A stretch of DNA of 9,265 nt, taken from positions 1-9,265 of the forward strand of contig NZ_SNUY01000098.1 in assembly GCF_004376175.1 (NCBI RefSeq). Reading direction: 5' to 3'. The notes below the pieces were generated by a model, which was not told the origin of the DNA, searched no databases, and saw only the letters and a list, made by a program, of their open reading frames with translations. A program made the translations under genes and the position numbers. Positions 1-8,777 of this stretch are shown here, in pieces. Within the stretch, counting starts at the first letter, position 1, and each line of letters opens with the position of its first letter. This DNA is from Halalkalibacterium halodurans. GTDB lineage: Bacteria > Bacillota > Bacilli > Bacillales > Bacillaceae_D.

Positions 1-846
1 ATAGAATTGTTCTTCAGCCTGTGAGTGAGTGAAGGACCGGTAGATTGCCTTCAGATCTTCAGCGACTTCTTCTCGATCCTTCTTACGCACACGATTTAAG
101 GTGTGTCGTACTTTGTGTACCACACAACGCTGGACATCTGCTTTCGGATAAAGGCTTTTAAAAGCTTCTTCTAAGCCAGGAAGTCCATCAAATACACCGA
201 GTAAGACTTCCTTCAGCCCACGTTGATAGAGGTCTTGAAGCATCTCTTGCCAACCAAGAGCACTCTCTTGACCACCAATGTAGAAACCTAACAGTTCACG
301 ATATCCTTCTACAGTGACTCCAATGGCAAAGTAAATCACTTCGTTCGCCACGGTGTCACGGCGGAGTTTGATATACATGCCATCCAGATATAGCACAGAA
401 TAGCGTGGGTGTAATTCGCGTTGCTGCCACGCCTGGATATCTTCCATGGCCACTTCCGTGATATTACTGATGGTCGTGGCAGAGTAAGAAGAACCGAGAA
501 TGCGTTCAATGAACTTCCCTACTTCACGGGTACTCATGCCACTTTGATACATCTTGATAATGGTTTCCTCAAGCCATCCATCTCGACGTTGGTAAGGAGC
601 AAAGAGCTGAGTTTGAAATTCACCTCGGCGATCTCGTGGTACTGATAATTCTTCGATTTTGCCGTATCTCGTGTCTAATGAACGTTTATAATATCCATTT
701 TTGCTGTTTGGATGATTAGGTCTTTCAACTTTCAAGTAGTTATCCAGTTCTGCTTTCATGATGATTTCAAGTCTTTCTTGAATAAATGATTTTATGATTT
801 CTTCCAGTTGATTTGTGAAGTCGGATTTGTTTATACTTGATGACAT
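1..846 (-). CDS. IS256-family (Mutator-type) DDE transposase, N-terminal 282 codons; the C-terminal part lies beyond the left window edge
   Basis: The reverse-complement reading frame is open from ATG (complement of 844..846) to position 1. It translates MSSSINKSDFTNQLEEIIKSFIQERLEIIMKAELDNYLKVERPNHPNSKNGYYKRSLDTRYGKIEELSVPRDRRGEFQTQLFAPYQRR...SVLYLDGMYIKLRRD...LLGVFDGLPGLEEAF...VQRCVVHKVRHTLNRV. It carries IS256-family hallmarks: first catalytic D in LYLDGMY (codon 382..384), second D in VFDGLPG (codon 187..189), and the QRCxxHKxR motif. The catalytic E would lie off-window. An AGAGGAG SD sits upstream of the ATG. The ORF is missing from the supplied track only because it is truncated by the window edge. 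Confidence 0.9.
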   Translation of the reverse strand, partial: MSSSINKSDFTNQLEEIIKSFIQERLEIIMKAELDNYLKVERPNHPNSKNGYYKRSLDTRYGKIEELSVPRDRRGEFQTQLFAPYQRRDGWLEETIIKMYQSGMSTREVGKFIERILGSSYSATTISNITEVAMEDIQAWQQRELHPRYSVLYLDGMYIKLRRDTVANEVIYFAIGVTVEGYRELLGFYIGGQESALGWQEMLQDLYQRGLKEVLLGVFDGLPGLEEAFKSLYPKADVQRCVVHKVRHTLNRVRKKDREEVAEDLKAIYRSFTHSQAEEQFY

Positions 847-1053: not shown

Positions 1054-1082
1054 TTGATACGTAGTGGGAAGCTGTTTATAAT
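1054..1082 (+). promoter_or_regulatory. Sigma-A (sigma-70) type promoter of the four-gene operon
   Basis: The -35 TTGATA (1054..1059) and a consensus -10 TATAAT (1077..1082) are separated by exactly 17 nt (1060..1076). The -10 lies 47 nt upstream of the first ATG (1130). No other comparable match was seen between the IS end and the operon. Confidence 0.6.
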
Positions 1083-1129: not shown

Positions 1130-2152
1130 ATGGAAGAGATCAAAAAACGATTAGCAACATATCCAAAAAGAACGATTACGTTAACTCAGCTTGAAGAGTT
1201 GATTAAACCATATATTCATACATACGAACAGTTTGCGGATACGATTTTACAATTGGAGTCAGAGGAAGTATTAGGGATGGTGAAAGCGAAAGGGCGAACG
1301 GCCAGAACGCCATCTCTTGCGTTGCAGTACCGCATTGATAAGAGCTTACTAGCAATGAACCATCACAAGGAGCTCCAACGTTTCCGTCAGCTTCTGCATC
1401 CGTCAATTAATATAGATGACTATTACGGTAAAGATCCTTTGATTTGGCAAAATGACCTAGCTGCTATTTTAAAAGTGGATGAATACATCAAGACATATTC
1501 CTTTCCATCAGAACAAGTGCCTGCACCTGAACGCAGCTTTGAAATAGTCGGGGATGAAAAGTGGCTGGTTGAAAAAGGCGGCAAGGAGCTTCTGGAGCGA
1601 ATTGGTGTATTTGATAAGCTTAAGATTATTCCTGTTTCTGAACCTCTTATGTTTGCGATTAATCCTACGAATATTCAAAATGCTATTCAGCTTCATTTAA
1701 TCGTTGAAAATAAGACAACCTATCAAGGGTTACTGCCTGCCCTCGTTGAAACAGAGTTTTCGACGCTTATTTATGGTAGTGGAAAATCGGTGATTAAAAG
1801 CATTGAGCAGTTTGCGATTCAATACCCGCTCAAGGCAGATCATCAGTTTTTTTATTTTGGTGATTTAGATCGAGAAGGTTTGATGATTTGGTATTCGTTA
1901 ACGAAAAGGCAGCCTGTTCATGTCGCTTTGCCATTCTATCTAGCTTGTTTAGCAAAAGAGGCAGTCACAGGAAAGGATTATCAGCGAGAACACATCGAAG
2001 CTCTTGAGGCTTTTCTTCTTTTCTTTCTGCCAAAACAGCAGAATTTGATCAGAATGCTATTAGCGGAAGGTAAGTATTATCCTCAAGAAATATTAAAGAC
2101 AAAGGAATTACAGATGATTTGGAGGGAAACTGATTGGAAGGCCTTGATGTAA
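1130..2152 (+). CDS. jetD: JetD/MksG-like Toprim nuclease subunit (Wadjet-type, DUF2220-like C-terminal domain), 340 aa
   Basis: ATG at 1130 with an AGAGGTG RBS at 1115..1121. The acidic Toprim residues sit in JetD-like context: LHLIVENKTTY (E193, codon 1706..1708) and FFYFGDLDREGLMIW (D245 at 1862..1864, D247 at 1868..1870), about 52 aa apart as in topo VI-A/JetD Toprim folds. Upstream, the ERSFEIVGDEKWL motif resembles the conserved ER-x-S/F...GDxK segment of DUF2220 proteins. The gene is co-operonic with an SMC-like ATPase. Confidence 0.8.
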   Translation: MEEIKKRLATYPKRTITLTQLEELIKPYIHTYEQFADTILQLESEEVLGMVKAKGRTARTPSLALQYRIDKSLLAMNHHKELQRFRQLLHPSINIDDYYGKDPLIWQNDLAAILKVDEYIKTYSFPSEQVPAPERSFEIVGDEKWLVEKGGKELLERIGVFDKLKIIPVSEPLMFAINPTNIQNAIQLHLIVENKTTYQGLLPALVETEFSTLIYGSGKSVIKSIEQFAIQYPLKADHQFFYFGDLDREGLMIWYSLTKRQPVHVALPFYLACLAKEAVTGKDYQREHIEALEAFLLFFLPKQQNLIRMLLAEGKYYPQEILKTKELQMIWRETDWKALM

Positions 2153-3648
2153 ATGAGTTAACACGTGGATATCGGGAGCGGATCAGACGGCTTGCTCTTT
2201 TTGAACCATTGCATGTATTAGAGAGAAAACGTGAAGAGGATTTAGAAGGTAAGAGCATTGATATGAAAGGATTCGGTCTGCTTACGTTATTATTTTTCTT
2301 TGAGCAAAAACTGATGAGGCAATCGAAAACGGGTGTGAAGCAGCTGGCAGCTTTTTTAGAAAGCGTATCAGAGCAGAAATATCTCCTGTCAGAAGAAAAA
2401 TATGAAGTGCTGGCAAGGTCGATCATTCAAACCTTTCGTCCGACTGACGGAAAGAAGCGTCGTTATTCGTATTATGATTGGGAAGTGAACGAGGAGCAAT
2501 CAATTGAATATTCAATCTTGAAAGCCAATAATTTCGATGTCAAAACGAATACACAATATTATACGTTAGATGAGGACGGGCTTGAGTTACTTTTTGCGAC
2601 GAAGGAGTTTTATAGTGAGTTCCAGCTTTCGATTAATCAGCTGATCCTTAGAAAGCAGTTAGAAAAAGGGGAGTTTAAAGGGGCTCTTAGGCAAATTAAT
2701 GAAATGCGCATTGATGTGGAGACGTTAGAGGAACGTATGATTAGGCTGAAGCATGAGATTCAGCGGAGCATTGTGTCGGAGGAAACATTCGAGCGGTATA
2801 AGCAGCTTCTTGAAGACATTTATGAGCGCCTTGCGCGTGAGGATGAAGAGTTCAAAGAGCTGCGCTTGTTTGTCAAAGAGACGAGAGAGCGCCTTTATTC
2901 AAAAGACGTTCATCAAAAGGAAAGACAAACTTATGGCTACATTCTAAAAATTAATCGTGAGCTAGAGGCGGTTCATTATGACCATTCGCGATTATTAGAT
3001 CAAACGCTAACACTAAAAAACACGACGCTCATCACAGCGCAAGAGTCTCTTTATTATACGGGTATTCATTCTTTTAACTTTGATCAGGATATAGTTTCTC
3101 ATATTGTCTCGGGGCCTTTACCGGTAGAAGCGATGAAAGGGATTCTTCATCCGTTTTTACAAGTTGAAGAGAATGAACGGTGGTCTCCTTTAGCTGTGTT
3201 GGCTGAGCAAAATATTACCGAAGAACGAGAGGGGAAAGTGGATCAAGGATTTATTGAGGTGGGCGAAGAACAATCTGATAATCCACACCGACAGTGGCTG
3301 ACACAAAAGTATAAAGAGCTAATGGAACTTTTCCTACAAGCTTATGGCGAGCAGAAAGGTGGCACACTTTCAGCCTTTATGAATTTTCTTTGTGAAAATG
3401 ATCAAGCTGCTGTGTATGAACAGCGTTATTTCTACGATTTTTGGTTGATTCTCCACCAACGATCGCCGATTATTCAAGGGGATGTCGATGAACAGGAAGG
3501 AAAGACGTTGCTTGGAGAGGCGTTAGCGCTTATTGGAGATCTCACTCTGATCATTAAAGAAGGAAAAGGGATCATTCAAAAAGTGGACCGCTATTCGATT
3601 CAAGAAATGATCATAGAAATGGAGGGAGCAGAGGATGAATTATCCTGA
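2134..3648 (+). CDS. Candidate kleisin subunit (JetA/MksF-like by size and position), 504 aa; no motif recognised directly
   Basis: TTG start at 2134, 8 nt downstream of GGAGG (2121..2125), overlapping the upstream stop by 19 nt. The next in-frame ATG is 43 codons further in and has no RBS. At about 500 aa the size matches JetA/MksF. A central E/R/K-rich helical stretch (LRQINEMRIDVETLEERMIRLKHEIQRS...EDEEFKELRLFVKETRERL) is flanked by mixed alpha/beta-looking ends. The functional call rests on gene neighbourhood, not on sequence identity. Confidence 0.6.
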   Translation: MEGLDVNELTRGYRERIRRLALFEPLHVLERKREEDLEGKSIDMKGFGLLTLLFFFEQKLMRQSKTGVKQLAAFLESVSEQKYLLSEEKYEVLARSIIQTFRPTDGKKRRYSYYDWEVNEEQSIEYSILKANNFDVKTNTQYYTLDEDGLELLFATKEFYSEFQLSINQLILRKQLEKGEFKGALRQINEMRIDVETLEERMIRLKHEIQRSIVSEETFERYKQLLEDIYERLAREDEEFKELRLFVKETRERLYSKDVHQKERQTYGYILKINRELEAVHYDHSRLLDQTLTLKNTTLITAQESLYYTGIHSFNFDQDIVSHIVSGPLPVEAMKGILHPFLQVEENERWSPLAVLAEQNITEEREGKVDQGFIEVGEEQSDNPHRQWLTQKYKELMELFLQAYGEQKGGTLSAFMNFLCENDQAAVYEQRYFYDFWLILHQRSPIIQGDVDEQEGKTLLGEALALIGDLTLIIKEGKGIIQKVDRYSIQEMIIEMEGAEDELS

Positions 3649-4375
3649 GAAAAAAGTCATTCTGGCTTTTCAGCTTTATACAAAACTAGCACGAGATGGG
3701 GTTTCAGACGTACAAGCGGTCCAACTCTATAAAGCGGATGATGATATTCGTGCTCTTCTTGATACGTTTAGCCATCAAGTTGATTGCGTGATCATTCTAA
3801 CGAGTGAACAAATGTTTATGGTACCAAGAACGCGGCTCTCTCCTTTTCATGTCAGCAATGACTGGATTAAGCGACAATATTTGCGTTCTGGTGCGACAAA
3901 TGGAGATATTTATCTGTTATATTTTTCGACGATTATTCTGTTTGGTAGCTTTTATGATACGTATCAAAGTCAAGAGCCGACGAGGCAATTTATTCGTTTA
4001 GATGAATGGGTTCATTTTATACAAGAGCGGATTGATCAATTAAAAGCTCATGATACGGAAGAACTGAAGGAATTAGAAAAGGAATTTTCATATAATTGGT
4101 CTTTAATCATCGAGAAATGGGAAGATATGAATGATATTAAGGAAACAGCTAAAAAACAAAGCGGCAACACCATTAGTCGTCTAAGCTTTATTGATACGGT
4201 GAAACGATTTTTGGTTGATCAAGAGGTAGTTCAAGAGATTGGCAATGATGAAATTACGTTAACAGAAAAAGCGAAAACGATTATTCAGCGCTTCTTTATG
4301 GAAGTGGAGTATAACAAAGGTATTTTTGAATTTATTTACGGGTTTGAAAGGGAGGAAGAGCATGCCGGCGATTAG
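3635..4375 (+). CDS. Candidate KITE subunit (JetB/MksE/MukE-like by size and position), 246 aa; no motif recognised directly
   Basis: ATG at 3635 with GGAGG at 3621..3625 (9-nt spacer), overlapping the upstream gene by 14 nt. The roughly 240 aa length and the position between the putative kleisin and the SMC gene match JetB (DUF4194-type). The acidic C-terminal tail (FEREEEHAGD) and two helix-rich halves are compatible with a tandem winged-helix KITE protein. The function is inferred from context. Confidence 0.55.
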   Translation: MNYPEKKVILAFQLYTKLARDGVSDVQAVQLYKADDDIRALLDTFSHQVDCVIILTSEQMFMVPRTRLSPFHVSNDWIKRQYLRSGATNGDIYLLYFSTIILFGSFYDTYQSQEPTRQFIRLDEWVHFIQERIDQLKAHDTEELKELEKEFSYNWSLIIEKWEDMNDIKETAKKQSGNTISRLSFIDTVKRFLVDQEVVQEIGNDEITLTEKAKTIIQRFFMEVEYNKGIFEFIYGFEREEEHAGD

Positions 4376-7300
4376 TAAAATTCGGTTAACAAACGTTGTA
4401 TATGAAGAAGGGAATAAACGATATAATGATGAGCTATTCTTGTTTGATGGACATAACGGAGCCATTTTACTAGAAAATGGTGGCGGAAAGACGGTTCTCA
4501 TTCAAACAGCATTACAAGCAATCATTCCTCATACGAATTTAGCCGAGCGACAACTGAGAAACACGCTTCTTCTTGAAAATGCCCCTGCTCATATCGCGAT
4601 CGAATGGATCATAAATGAAAAGCCAAGGCGATATGTCGTGACGGCTGTAACCCTTTTTATGACGAAGCATGGGCTTGATTCACTTCGATACGTCTATGAA
4701 TATGAAGCAAATGACCCAAATGGCATTGATGAAATTCCTTTTGTTCGCGGAACTGAGACGAAACGAACGGCGGAACGAGGAGAAATGCAAGACTATTATA
4801 GCCAAATGCGTGAACGTTCCTTTTTGGCTCGTACCTTCCAGACGATTAAGGAATATCGTAGCTTTCTTGAAGAACAGTATCATATTATTGCCAATGAGTG
4901 GGAAAGTGTTGTCAAAATTAATAGCTCTGAAGGTGGAGTTGAGGCTTTTTTTGATGATTGTAAAAACACAAATCAGTTGTTTGATCGTCTGTTAATTCCA
5001 ACGGTTGAACAATCGATTGCTGGTCATGATGAAAAAATGTTTGCGGATATGTTTGAAAAGCAGCATACAAGCTTTAAGCAGTATAAAAAGTTAAAAGAGA
5101 CGATTGAAGAAAATAAACGGATTCAAGAGGAATTAGAAACATTTGTTCAGGCGTTTGAACAGCTTCATCAAAAGAAACTAGAATACAAAAAAACAAAGCA
5201 AAAGGCAAAAGGTACGTGGGAGGAAATCCAGCTGCAAAAGGAAAAGATAAAGGGCGAACAAACGGTTCTGTTTGAAAAGTTGGAGGAATGGAAGCAAAAA
5301 GATTACAAGCACGCCATTAAGTCTGCTTCTTATGAGATTGCCGTTGAAAAATCGACCCTAGACAGCTTAACGAAAGAGTATAATCAAGCTTTTGCGAAAT
5401 ATGCCCAGTTAGAAGAAGAGCTTAAACGTCATCATTTGGACTATTATTCGCTTAAACTAGCGGAGCTAAAGGCCGAGCAGAAGAACTTCAAAGATCAACT
5501 GAAGCATTTTGAAGAGGAAATGGACAAGCTGAACCAGACAGAAGAGCTTGAGGAGCTTGAAGAGCAGCTAGAACAGGCAAAACGCTCGTTGCTAGGCTTT
5601 TTTATCGGGAAAATCGAAAAGATTGAAAAAGAGATACGAGGTCTAACTTTTGAGATGAATCCGATTAAAGAACAGCTGCAACAATCGCAAGACACGTTAA
5701 CTTCATTACAGGAAAAAGAAGCAGAACAGGAAAAGAAGCTTTCTAGTATCAAAAGTCTGCTTGATACGAGAACGAAGGATATGAACCAACTAGAGCAGCA
5801 GCTGTTAGCCAATCCAAAGCAACAGCGTGTCCAAGAAGAAATCGTCAACTGGAATAATCGTTATCAATTTTTAGATGATGAGATGATTCGATTGCAGCAA
5901 GAGGAAAAGCAAATTGAAATTGAAAAAAGTGAGGCGCAAAAGCGAAAAGATGCTTTTCAAGAAGAAAGAGTGAACCGCGAGCGCGAGCGTGATTCCATCG
6001 AATATCAGCTTGATACAATCAACAAAGAGCAGAAAAACTTGATTGCCATCCTTTCTGCTGTTCGTCCGCAATGGGCAGCTCTTGAAAATGTGTATGAAAA
6101 TGAAAGCTCGATTGCTTCAAGACTAGTTGAAACAATTGAAAGATTTGAGAAAGAACGAAGCCATTTACTGTACTTGGAGCGAATCGCGCATCGGTTTGTC
6201 GATGATTATGACAAGCAAAATGTCTTCTTTGGTGATTCCTTTGTCGAGTCCCAGTTAAAGTCTTGGAAAAATCAGTTTGACTTATTACTGACAGGGGTTG
6301 AATATATCCAGTCATTAGATGCGGCTGATTACCTTGAGAAAAAAAGCTATCCTCTCTGGTCGTTAACACTGATAACAACAAATAAATCCAAGGCTATGTT
6401 GCAAGAAAAATTAAACGGTGTAGCGGACCGACTGCAATTTCCAATTCATGTCATGACGACAGAAGAAGCAGCTGTCGCTCATAAAGACGAAAGTCCACAC
6501 ACATGGATAGCACCTCTTCATTGGAGCAAGGGAATGGAAGCTGAATCGTTCCAACATTGGAAAGAAGATATCGCTAAAACAGCGAATGAAACAATCCTTT
6601 CACGGGAGCAAAAAGAAAAGGAAATGAAAAAATGGGAACATGCTCAAAAAGCCTTTGACGACTTTATGGCACAATTTTCATATGAAAAAATGACCAAGTT
6701 ACAGGAAGAGCGCTCAACGATCATACGTCAAATAGAGCGGCTCTCTCTTAGTATCGTAAAAGAAGATGAGCAAATGGAAGACTTACGATCTAAGCTTACT
6801 CTTTTAAAAGATACTGTCAAAAAAGACCAGGATGAAATGAAAGGATTGGAGTGGAAGGTTGAACGAGGAAATCTCTACCTTCAATATAGCCGAGAAGTAG
6901 AAGAGGCGAAAAAGAAAGAGAAGCAGGTAAAGGAAGAGCTTGTGGAACTCGAAAAAGAAGTAGTTAACGTCAAACTCCAATATGATGCTTTATTTGAACA
7001 AAAGGCAGAGCTAGACAAAAGAATCGGCTCTTTAAATACGGAATTAAGCATCTTAAAACGTGATGAACAGTTTATTGCTGTTCAACCCCTTACGCCACTA
7101 TTTTCAGGTGAGGGCAAGCAGATGATTCAAGAGAAAATTCGCAACCTAGAATTTAAAATTCGAGCCATTCAAGTCAGTTACGGAGAATGGAATGCGAAAT
7201 TAGAAAACGCAAAGGCTGGTATAGAACGGACGAGTAAGGCAATGGATGAGTTGCGCACCGAACATGGACAGCTTGATGAGGATGTGCTTTTTCCAAGTGA

Positions 7301-8777
7301 CGGGATGCAATTGTTGAAGGATCTTTGGGAGAAAATAGAAAAGACGGAGAACCAAGTTGACTCTCTCAATCAAGAGGTGAAGCAAAAATCATCTGCAAAG
7401 GAAAAGCAAGAAGGAAAGTGGGAAGCTAAGGTCGAGCAATTTAGAGAAAAGTATCCTGACGACTCAATCTTTGAATTTACCACGGCATTAGCGGAAGTAA
7501 AGGAAGAATTAAAGAGTGCAGCATTAACGTTAAAAGAAAGCAAAAGCTACCTTGAACAAGAGAAGAACAGAATGAGACAAGAGCTTGCAAGCATTGAGGG
7601 AGCTGAACGTGGCTTAGAACGTTTTATCGAAAAGCATCACTTTAATGCACCAGATATTGAGGCCATCTCGTTGAATTCAGAAGAAAGCAGAACGTTCACG
7701 TATCAACGTAAACCATTTGTTGACGCGATTATTCGTGAGCTCGAACAAGTGAAGGAAGCATTGCAAGGTGAGAATGAGAAAGTCGAGCGTGAAAAGCAGT
7801 CCTTTAGAGAATTTAGCCAAACGATTAGTGATATAAAGATGCGGCAGATGGCTGAAAATGGTATTGAATATAAACGAACGTACGAAGACTTAATCGATTT
7901 TAAGAAAAACATGCTTATAAGTGTTGAGAGAGCGACCAATTATGCAAATGAATATATTCGTCAAAAAGATACAGAGCTGCAAGCCTTTATTAATCAGATT
8001 CATGCTCACTTAAAAACGCTCGTTGAGGAATTAAAACAAATTCCTAAAAAGACGCGAGTGAAAGTAGAAAATGATTGGAAACAAATTTTTACGTTTGCGA
8101 TTCCAGAATGGGAAGAGGAAGACGGAAAAAATCGGATTCGTGATTATATTGAATGGATTCTAGAGCAGCTAGAATCTGAGCGGTTCCTCAATGATCAAGG
8201 GATGCAAGATGATGGCAAAGTCAGAAAAGAAATTGATATGTGGCTGCAATCCAAGCAGTTACTCAGATGGGTTATGAAAAATGAAGAGATGAAAGTGAAT
8301 TGCCGCAAAGTGACAAATGATAACAAAGTCACGACAAGGTCTTATTCGTGGGAACAAAGTAACGTATGGTCTGGTGGAGAAAAATGGAGTAAGAACATGA
8401 CGCTCTTTTTGGGCATCCAAAATTATATTGCGGAGAAAAAGCAGCACATCCAACCAAACATGAAACGTCACAGAGCGGTAATTTTAGACAATCCGTTTGG
8501 AAAAGCTTCAAGTGATCACGTTTTAAGCCCGGTCTTTTTTGTCGCTGAACAACTAGGATTCCAAATTATTGCCCTAACCGCTCACGCAGAAGGAAAATTC
8601 CTGCAAGACTTTTTCCCAGTCATCTATAGCTGCCGCTTACGTGAATCAGTCGACTCTTCTAAAAAAGTGATGACAAAAGAAAAATGGCTGCACCATGCCT
8701 ACTTCCAGGACCATGAACCTAAATCAATGGACAGACTCGGAGAAAGTGAGCAGATGGTGTTGTTTGAGTTTGAGTAG
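4362..8777 (+). CDS. jetC: MukB/JetC-like SMC-family ATPase with very long coiled-coil arms, 1471 aa
   Basis: The preferred start is ATG 4362, with GGAGG at 4351..4355 (6-nt spacer) and a 14-nt overlap with the upstream stop. The track's TTG at 4326 has no RBS.
- N-terminal head: ISKIRLTNVVY...GAILLENGGGKTVLIQTA, Walker A NGGGKT at 4476..4493 (K43).
- C-terminal head: signature SGGE at 8370..8381 (S1337), Walker B VILDN at 8478..8492 (D1376-N1377), D-loop-like ASSD, and H-loop ALTAH (H1408, 8583..8585).
- Between the heads: about 1000 aa of E/K/Q/L-rich heptad-like sequence, interrupted by a globular Cys-free segment at about 6040..6560 (putative hinge). Confidence 0.85.
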   Translation: MPAISKIRLTNVVYEEGNKRYNDELFLFDGHNGAILLENGGGKTVLIQTALQAIIPHTNLAERQLRNTLLLENAPAHIAIEWIINEKPRRYVVTAVTLFMTKHGLDSLRYVYEYEANDPNGIDEIPFVRGTETKRTAERGEMQDYYSQMRERSFLARTFQTIKEYRSFLEEQYHIIANEWESVVKINSSEGGVEAFFDDCKNTNQLFDRLLIPTVEQSIAGHDEKMFADMFEKQHTSFKQYKKLKETIEENKRIQEELETFVQAFEQLHQKKLEYKKTKQKAKGTWEEIQLQKEKIKGEQTVLFEKLEEWKQKDYKHAIKSASYEIAVEKSTLDSLTKEYNQAFAKYAQLEEELKRHHLDYYSLKLAELKAEQKNFKDQLKHFEEEMDKLNQTEELEELEEQLEQAKRSLLGFFIGKIEKIEKEIRGLTFEMNPIKEQLQQSQDTLTSLQEKEAEQEKKLSSIKSLLDTRTKDMNQLEQQLLANPKQQRVQEEIVNWNNRYQFLDDEMIRLQQEEKQIEIEKSEAQKRKDAFQEERVNRERERDSIEYQLDTINKEQKNLIAILSAVRPQWAALENVYENESSIASRLVETIERFEKERSHLLYLERIAHRFVDDYDKQNVFFGDSFVESQLKSWKNQFDLLLTGVEYIQSLDAADYLEKKSYPLWSLTLITTNKSKAMLQEKLNGVADRLQFPIHVMTTEEAAVAHKDESPHTWIAPLHWSKGMEAESFQHWKEDIAKTANETILSREQKEKEMKKWEHAQKAFDDFMAQFSYEKMTKLQEERSTIIRQIERLSLSIVKEDEQMEDLRSKLTLLKDTVKKDQDEMKGLEWKVERGNLYLQYSREVEEAKKKEKQVKEELVELEKEVVNVKLQYDALFEQKAELDKRIGSLNTELSILKRDEQFIAVQPLTPLFSGEGKQMIQEKIRNLEFKIRAIQVSYGEWNAKLENAKAGIERTSKAMDELRTEHGQLDEDVLFPSDGMQLLKDLWEKIEKTENQVDSLNQEVKQKSSAKEKQEGKWEAKVEQFREKYPDDSIFEFTTALAEVKEELKSAALTLKESKSYLEQEKNRMRQELASIEGAERGLERFIEKHHFNAPDIEAISLNSEESRTFTYQRKPFVDAIIRELEQVKEALQGENEKVEREKQSFREFSQTISDIKMRQMAENGIEYKRTYEDLIDFKKNMLISVERATNYANEYIRQKDTELQAFINQIHAHLKTLVEELKQIPKKTRVKVENDWKQIFTFAIPEWEEEDGKNRIRDYIEWILEQLESERFLNDQGMQDDGKVRKEIDMWLQSKQLLRWVMKNEEMKVNCRKVTNDNKVTTRSYSWEQSNVWSGGEKWSKNMTLFLGIQNYIAEKKQHIQPNMKRHRAVILDNPFGKASSDHVLSPVFFVAEQLGFQIIALTAHAEGKFLQDFFPVIYSCRLRESVDSSKKVMTKEKWLHHAYFQDHEPKSMDRLGESEQMVLFEFE

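Follow-up and report, generated by a model that had tools for sequence, protein, structure and literature searches.

The window, by which we mean the whole stretch of DNA analysed here (9265 bases), carries four co-directional plus-strand genes in the order jetD3-jetA3-jetB3-jetC3, each of which overlaps or abuts the next. The first of these, jetD3 (1130..2152), encodes a Toprim nuclease subunit of 340 aa that matches the PADLOC model JetD3 (PDLC00592) over its full length at 1.6e-114. Its Toprim nuclease domain (Pfam JetD_C) retains the predicted catalytic Glu, in L-I-V-E-N (1697-1720, with V-E-N at residue 193), and the predicted D-x-D, in F-G-D-L-D (1853-1879, where D-L-D corresponds to residues 245-247). 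It is followed by jetA3 (2134..3648), which encodes a kleisin-like subunit of approximately 504 aa (PADLOC JetA3, PDLC00566, 3.9e-236, positions 4-502 of 503) and starts at a TTG at 2134 with GGAGGGA upstream, overlapping the end of jetD3, and by jetB3 (3635..4375), which encodes a KITE-like subunit of 246 aa (PADLOC JetB3, PDLC00575, 1.4e-126; Pfam DUF6063, 1.7e-94). The last gene, jetC3 (4362..8777), encodes a MukB-like SMC ATPase of 1471 aa that scores 2014 bits against PADLOC JetC3 (PDLC00582), covering positions 1-1472 of 1472. Its 5' end overlaps the 3' end of jetB3 by 14 nt, and its start was placed at the ATG at 4362, which has a GGGAGG ribosome-binding site upstream and is also where the PADLOC model starts; jetA3, jetB3 and jetC3 are each preceded by a good ribosome-binding site. 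A promoter-like TTGATA-17-TATAAT (1054..1082, plus strand) lies 48 nt 5' of jetD3 and, with 11/12 consensus matches, is the top-scoring site of the window in a consensus scan, being a pattern match only.

JetA3, JetB3, JetC3 and JetD3 are thus all matched at approximately full length, which completes the PADLOC type III model set, and by its gene content the locus is an intact, ordinary type III Wadjet (JetABCD-III) anti-plasmid operon. The IS256-family transposase at the edge of the window (1..846, minus strand, running past the window start; Pfam Transposase_mut, 7e-83; NCBIfam transpos_IS256, 4e-93) is separate from the Wadjet system. The closest genome matches are the JetC3 of Halalkalibacter nanhaiisediminis and that of an uncultured Bacillaceae MAG, at 93-94% identity, and the C-terminal head of the window JetC3 is 85-89% identical to many Bacillaceae homologues. 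The system is already known, and the copy in the window is indistinguishable from the rest of the type III family. The original prediction had read an SMC subunit here without naming it specifically as a type III Wadjet JetC, a name that PADLOC supplies.

The Walker B motif of JetC3

The ATPase motifs of the window JetC3, all on the plus strand, are for the most part those of a canonical SMC/MukB-type site. The Walker A, E-N-G-G-G-K-T (residues 38-44, 4473..4493), satisfies the G-x-x-G-x-G-K-[ST] pattern, and conservation across the aligned family is 90% or higher at N39, G40, G42, K43 and T44. Further into the N-lobe lies an I-N-x-x-E-G motif (N187 and E190, 4917..4937) that is invariant in alignments A1 and A3. 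In the C-lobe, the signature W-S-G-G-E-K (8367..8384, with W-S-G-G-E at 1336-1340 and its serine at S1337) is followed by the Walker B strand R-A-V-I-L-D and N1377 (8472..8492), by a D-loop region P-F-G-K-A-S-S-D-H (8493..8519) whose P, F, G, A, S and S are invariant in alignment A1, and by the H-loop strand I-I-A-L-T-A-H (8565..8585) ending in H1408. Counted from the ATG at 4362, GAC AAT at 8487-8492 encodes D1376-N1377 within R-A-V-I-L-D-N-P-F-G; the Walker B Asp is therefore present, and the catalytic Glu that would follow it is absent, with N1377 in its stead. Translation in this manner bears out the central claim of the original prediction, that the SMC Walker B reads D-N and not D-E. The spacings that it gave hold as well, S1337 lying 40 residues before N1377 and H1408 lying 32 residues after D1376, and the MukB numbering that it cited agrees with the E. 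coli K-12 MukB sequence (S1366 and D1406-E1407, a spacing of 41).

Placing this D-N with respect to better-known SMC proteins was done against a comparison set consisting of type I JetC from six loci, type II JetC from two loci, the Smc of a close relative and E. coli MukB. A plain phmmer search of JetC3 against PDB sequences returned coiled-coil noise only, and because the matches of a full-length JetC3 profile were dominated by the coiled coils of myosin, tropomyosin and SMC proteins, head-only hhalign and structure searches were adopted in its place. The C-terminal heads of JetC1 and JetC2 read S-G-G-E-K ... L-D-E-A-F-A-G-V-D ... L-G-F-N-Y-I, and that of MukB reads S-T-G-E ... F-L-D-E-A. 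With a 46-sequence JetC3 head profile, hhalign aligned L-D-N-P-F of JetC3 onto L-D-E-A-F of JetC1/2 and L-D-E-A of MukB, such that the signature motifs and the downstream L-G-F strand were also in register when D-N lay on D-E, and D-N of JetC3 corresponds to D1406-E1407 of E. coli MukB. The hhalign probabilities are modest (55% and 4%), owing to thin templates, but the alignments are consistent with one another and with the motifs.

Predicted structures of the two lobes are in agreement with this placement. The C-terminal 283 residues were modelled with AlphaFold from a 30-sequence alignment (mean pLDDT 80, and above 89 over residues 11-170), and the model has the expected ABC topology: S-G-G-E caps helix 150-171 at its N-terminus, the Walker B Asp is the final residue of strand 183-188, and the Asn comes immediately after that strand, followed by a helix, strand 212-217 and T-A-H. 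In a Foldseek search with this model, the five top matches (E 5e-5 to 7.5e-4) comprise E. coli and P. aeruginosa JetC, then MukB heads and the N. vireti JetC-II; in VIA-align, the JetC/MukB heads reach Z 7-8, above the heads of Rad50 and Smc. For the N-lobe model (pLDDT 83.5), the MukB N-domain scores Z 14.6 and JetC Z 13.4, and in a profile search against the PDB the middle 1000 residues of JetC3 match coiled-coil proteins only; the lobe models and these matches fit the SMC architecture of a split ABC head and a long coiled coil. Between the signature and the H-loop of JetC3, we found no second hhhhD-type segment, and the model has a single strand there. The segment singled out originally as the only Walker-B-like one in the C-terminal head thus retains that standing, and neither profile alignment nor predicted fold offers a Glu-containing alternative. 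Together, the alignments and the predicted fold show N1377 to sit at the catalytic-glutamate position of JetC-I, JetC-II and MukB.

Conservation across the type III family

Among the type III JetC family sequences that carry the motif, 412 of 413 read D-N, and the lone exception, which reads N-N, is a chimeric fragment of 282 residues. All 121 close homologues (C-head identity 71-100%) have D-N, and D-N-P-F-G-x-A-S-S is found in every one of the 105 full-length representatives of 50%-identity clusters, at identities down to 29%. D-N-P-F-G is kept even in a divergent subfamily (PADLOC model PDLC00586; Paenibacillus and others) with overall identity below 20%. Type III JetC from outside Bacillota was sampled through protein searches only (Fusobacteriota); a third search, seeded with a Fusobacteriota protein, added Desulfotomaculia, Limnochordia, Clostridia, Alicyclobacillus and Bacillus cytotoxicus. 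The last of these, a member of the B. cereus group (P0375) whose JetC3 carries D-N, serves here as proxy for the B. thuringiensis reference JetC. A search of a plasmid collection gave one distant match only, and the PADLOC JetC3 subfamilies PDLC00589 and PDLC00578 were each absent from 301 sampled Bacillota genomes.

Loci differ in their codons here, the Asn being written as AAT or AAC and the Asp likewise with either of its codons, and it is for this reason that the residue, rather than the nucleotide sequence, can be said to be conserved. Not one of the family members surveyed has Q, D, S or A at the Asn position, which argues, at the level of sequence, for a specific role of the Asn and against simple loss of the Glu; nor did the homologue surveys find a type III JetC with D-E that might represent an evolutionary intermediate. 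As judged from these alignments, the Asn itself is shown to be under purifying selection, and it is fixed throughout the type III JetC family as surveyed, a hallmark of that family and not a defect of the copy in the window. The comparison of homologues called for in the original prediction shows that close and distant relatives alike carry N, aligned on the D-E of JetC/MukB, where a strain-specific loss would have left E in all close relatives. The family-wide trait is apparently unreported: we found no mention of the type III Asn in the literature on Wadjet in combination with Walker B, asparagine or catalytic glutamate, though closed-access supplements could hold it.

The remainder of the head is conserved to differing degrees. 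Little or no variation is seen across the family in Walker A, in S-G-G-[EQ] (in a survey of 335 proteins, the signature was SGGE in 251 and SGGQ in 55), in the Walker B Asp or in P-F-G-x-A-S, and therefore ATP binding and head engagement are under selection. It follows that both functions are probably kept in JetC3, and that its hydrolysis of ATP, to go by the residues at the site, must be non-canonical or slow. The H-loop His, present in the window JetC3 as H1408 after strand 212-217, is variable: it is Leu in approximately 10% of the representatives and Ile in B. cytotoxicus, and in the divergent subfamily the motif is A-P-E or P-P-E, comparable to I-I-A-A-P-E of MukB. The divergent Paenibacillus subfamily also has a Walker A that reads G-K-G, lacking Ser/Thr after the Lys. 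At the putative Q-loop position, Q160 follows model strand 156-159, and this residue is not conserved across the family. The I-N-x-x-E-G motif of the N-lobe is invariant in every JetC3 subfamily, the most divergent included, and is a candidate source of a substitute catalytic or Mg-binding residue. In the N-lobe model, E190 falls in a low-confidence helix-loop-helix (pLDDT 55-70), approximately 30 residues past the topological Q-loop strand 156-159. The assignment of E190 as the Q-loop equivalent was not retained: it comes from a likeness in sequence, which the N-lobe model does not confirm.

Discussion

SMC complexes are considered to extrude loops through repeated rounds in which ATP is bound, the heads engage and the nucleotide is hydrolysed, and the standard 'dead motor' of the field carries a Walker B E-to-Q mutation; more generally, loss of the Glu at the Walker B site of ABC ATPases usually abolishes turnover. 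The suggestion in the original prediction of an ATPase that is slow, hydrolysis-deficient or dependent upon a different residue is a reasonable reading of the site.

The E. coli type I JetC(E1022Q) variant neither hydrolyses ATP nor supports plasmid cleavage (10.1101/2022.10.04.510915). In the same work, which used pHCMC05 or pC194 for transformation, an operon from B. thuringiensis serovar finitimus YBT-020 was found to block plasmid establishment in B. subtilis in a manner dependent on the Toprim domain of JetD (10.1101/2022.10.04.510915), and a later preprint assigned this operon to type III; plasmid restriction by type III is known solely from this operon in this host. Types II and III have been described as 'largely uncharacterized', with extrusion and cleavage expected in all types (type II structure preprint, 10.1101/2025.03.10.642339). 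Because every JetC3 that we examined has the Asn, it is almost certain that the active type III system operates with this residue, a view that we infer from other JetC3 proteins, a member of the B. cereus group among them.

The explanation that we favor, and to which we would assign roughly an even chance, is that the JetC3 of this operon has a remodelled site that turns over ATP slowly or with the help of other residues. JetC3 would bind Mg-ATP and engage two heads as other SMC proteins do, and would hydrolyse ATP without a canonical general base. The Asn would do no more than orient or polarise the water for attack, with help from other conserved groups, for which the H-loop His1408 (in the clade of the window) and the invariant N-lobe motif with N187 and E190 are candidates. 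The outcome would be a motor that runs slowly and stays engaged for long periods, one that could still support DNA extrusion and the JetD-mediated cleavage of small circular DNA. Several observations speak against such an arrangement, however. Asn at the matching site of Pdr5 marks a degenerate site that does not hydrolyse ATP (PMC7756269), the His proposed as a helper is not universal (Leu/Ile in approximately 10%, and APE/PPE in the divergent subfamily), E190 could not be positioned close to the ATP site, and the G-K-G Walker A of the divergent subfamily fits weak or no hydrolysis.

The main rival account is one that we consider possible, if on the unlikely side, wherein JetC3 would be a natural 'EQ-like' ATP switch that binds ATP and clamps DNA with engaged heads while performing essentially no hydrolysis. 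On this account, plasmids would be recognised and cut by type III Wadjet through ATP-gated clamping and not through processive loop extrusion. The catalytic Glu is missing from both of the identical sites of the expected homodimer, and the degenerate ABC site of Pdr5, which has Asn and does not hydrolyse ATP, is a precedent (PMC7756269). Part of the family dispenses with the H-loop His, and the Walker A Ser/Thr is gone in the Paenibacillus subfamily, all with the motifs for ATP binding and engagement still conserved. Set against this are the requirement of type I cleavage for hydrolysis, the expectation of the type II structure authors that extrusion-cleavage is common to all types, and the need of a non-hydrolysing clamp for some other reset route; furthermore, the strict retention of Asn, where other non-acidic residues might have served, speaks for an active part in the chemistry.

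A more specific proposal is that the catalytic carboxylate has been relocated, with Glu190 of the N-lobe acting as general base or Mg ligand in place of the Walker B Glu, in a RecA/F1-like manner. E190 and N187 are invariant in all JetC3 subfamilies, and the local sequence resembles the Q-loop segment of the close relative's Smc, G-Q-G-K-V-E-E-I-L, with E replacing Q; MukB has Y-G-G at the corresponding spot. We regard this as a doubtful proposition nonetheless, given that E190 lies within the helix-loop-helix of pLDDT 55-70 and not directly after the Q-loop strand 156-159, that the hhalign alignment to JetC1 is ambiguous here by one or two residues, and that JetC1 and JetC2 likewise have a nearby Glu. 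That the Asn is instead a local artefact, be it a sequencing error, a strain-specific inactivation in a decaying operon or a mis-assigned motif, is exceedingly improbable. Nothing beyond the IS256 transposase adjoining the operon would favor it, and the homologue survey refutes it: D-N recurs in the 412 homologues, from independent assemblies, which excludes the sequencing error that the original prediction had already deemed unlikely on the grounds, correct as stated, that GAA/GAG to AAT requires two substitutions, as does GAA/GAG to AAC. Moreover, none of the four genes falls short of the full length of its model, the D-N segment is the sole strand-Asp segment between signature and H-loop, and its alignment to D-E of JetC1/2 and MukB backs the assignment.

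Returning to the family as a whole, we think it somewhat probable that type III Wadjet represents an entire clade of SMC homodimers that function in vivo even though their Walker B has no catalytic glutamate. This broader reading spans two routes, namely hydrolysis at a remodelled site (by a relocated carboxylate such as E190, or by water assisted by the Asn or His) and ATP-gated clamping; if it is true, either route would amount to an ATPase cycle unseen in any characterised SMC. A plasmid-restricting family with Asn at both sites would furthermore constitute a ready-made test of what hydrolysis, and what chemistry, an SMC machine needs, and the trait could explain functional differences among the Wadjet types. 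The locus in the window is unremarkable in this respect, being one more intact copy; the interest lies in the trait of the class.

Comparison with known systems

The nearest point of reference is type III Wadjet itself, including the B. thuringiensis operon tested in B. subtilis: the same four subunits are present at full length with jetD first, and the MukB-like JetC head, the long coiled coil and the D-N-P-F-G Walker B are common to the window copy and the family. The type I and II systems of known structure (E. coli GF4-3, P. aeruginosa PA14 and N. vireti; PDB 8as8, 8q72, 8dk2 and 9qe0) resemble it in the fold of the head (C-lobe, Z 7-8; N-lobe, Z 13), in the order of motifs (S-G-G-E, L-D-x-x-F, L-G-F) and in the partner set of kleisin, KITE and Toprim nuclease. 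They differ in having L-D-E-A-F, with the catalytic Glu, where JetC3 has L-D-N-P-F, and N-S-Q at the H-loop position where the window JetC3 has T-A-H, and their sequence similarity to JetC3 is below the reach of plain phmmer. No structure matches the N-lobe better than that of MukB from E. coli MukBEF (1qhl, Z 14.6, with an rmsd of 3.5 angstrom across 175 residues), and the MukB signature-to-Walker-B spacing of 41 residues is close to the 40 of JetC3; unlike JetC3, however, MukB has D1406-E1407, is without a nuclease partner and acts on the chromosome. The natural occurrence of Asn in place of the Walker B Glu is shared with NBD1 of the asymmetric ABC transporter Pdr5 (PMC7756269). In such transporters the second, canonical site hydrolyses ATP, whereas JetC3 is expected to form a homodimer with Asn at both sites, and the other motifs of Pdr5 site 1, unlike those of JetC3, are not intact.

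Discussion

The single JetC3 homologue without the Walker B D-N pair (Asp1376-Asn1377 in this type III Wadjet SMC ATPase, with Asn in place of the catalytic Glu) is P0241, a short chimeric ORF of 282 aa which reads L-L-N-N-P-F-G and joins a JetA3-like N-terminus to a C-terminus resembling the JetC3 head; its locus is probably rearranged or decayed. A divergent JetC3 subfamily, found for the most part in Paenibacillus (loci L020-L024; proteins P0281-P0335), retains D-N-P-F-G despite a Walker A of the form N-G-(G/S)-G-K-G, in which the Mg-binding Ser/Thr is replaced by Gly (N-G-G-G-K-G was counted in 49 sequences). Its signature is S-G-G-Q, and A-P-E or P-P-E occupies the H-loop position. The H-loop His (H1408, window 8583-8585) gives way to Leu in approximately 11 of 105 JetC3 cluster representatives, and P0375, the homologue from B. 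cytotoxicus, has Ile there; not every member of the JetC3 family therefore requires this residue.

A 1705 aa JetC3 homologue with D-N (P0253) is encoded on an 898-kb Pontibacillus plasmid (NZ_CP062975.1, 75979-76635), and this megaplasmid therefore carries an anti-plasmid system. Two JetC3 fragments (P0275 and P0368) derive from MAG records labelled Methanothrix and Methanosarcina, which group with proteins of Limnochordia and Bacillota; these labels probably reflect binning contamination rather than an archaeal Wadjet.

The jetC3 reading frame is apparently altered in both of the two closest genome matches: L001 (8001-12476), where it continues beyond the window's stop to give an open frame of 1525 aa, and L003 (8001-10604), where the longest open frame is only 901 aa. 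Frameshifts or assembly errors may be responsible. In the window itself, the Wadjet operon lies directly downstream of an IS256-family transposase gene (1-846, minus strand), which is incomplete and extends beyond the window start. In the protein search, the longest contig with this exact JetC measures 9265 bases, equal to the window.

The N-lobe motif I-N-x-x-E-G (N187 and E190; window 4917-4937) does not vary in any JetC3 subfamily. MukB has L-Y-G-G (residues 205-208) at the corresponding spot.
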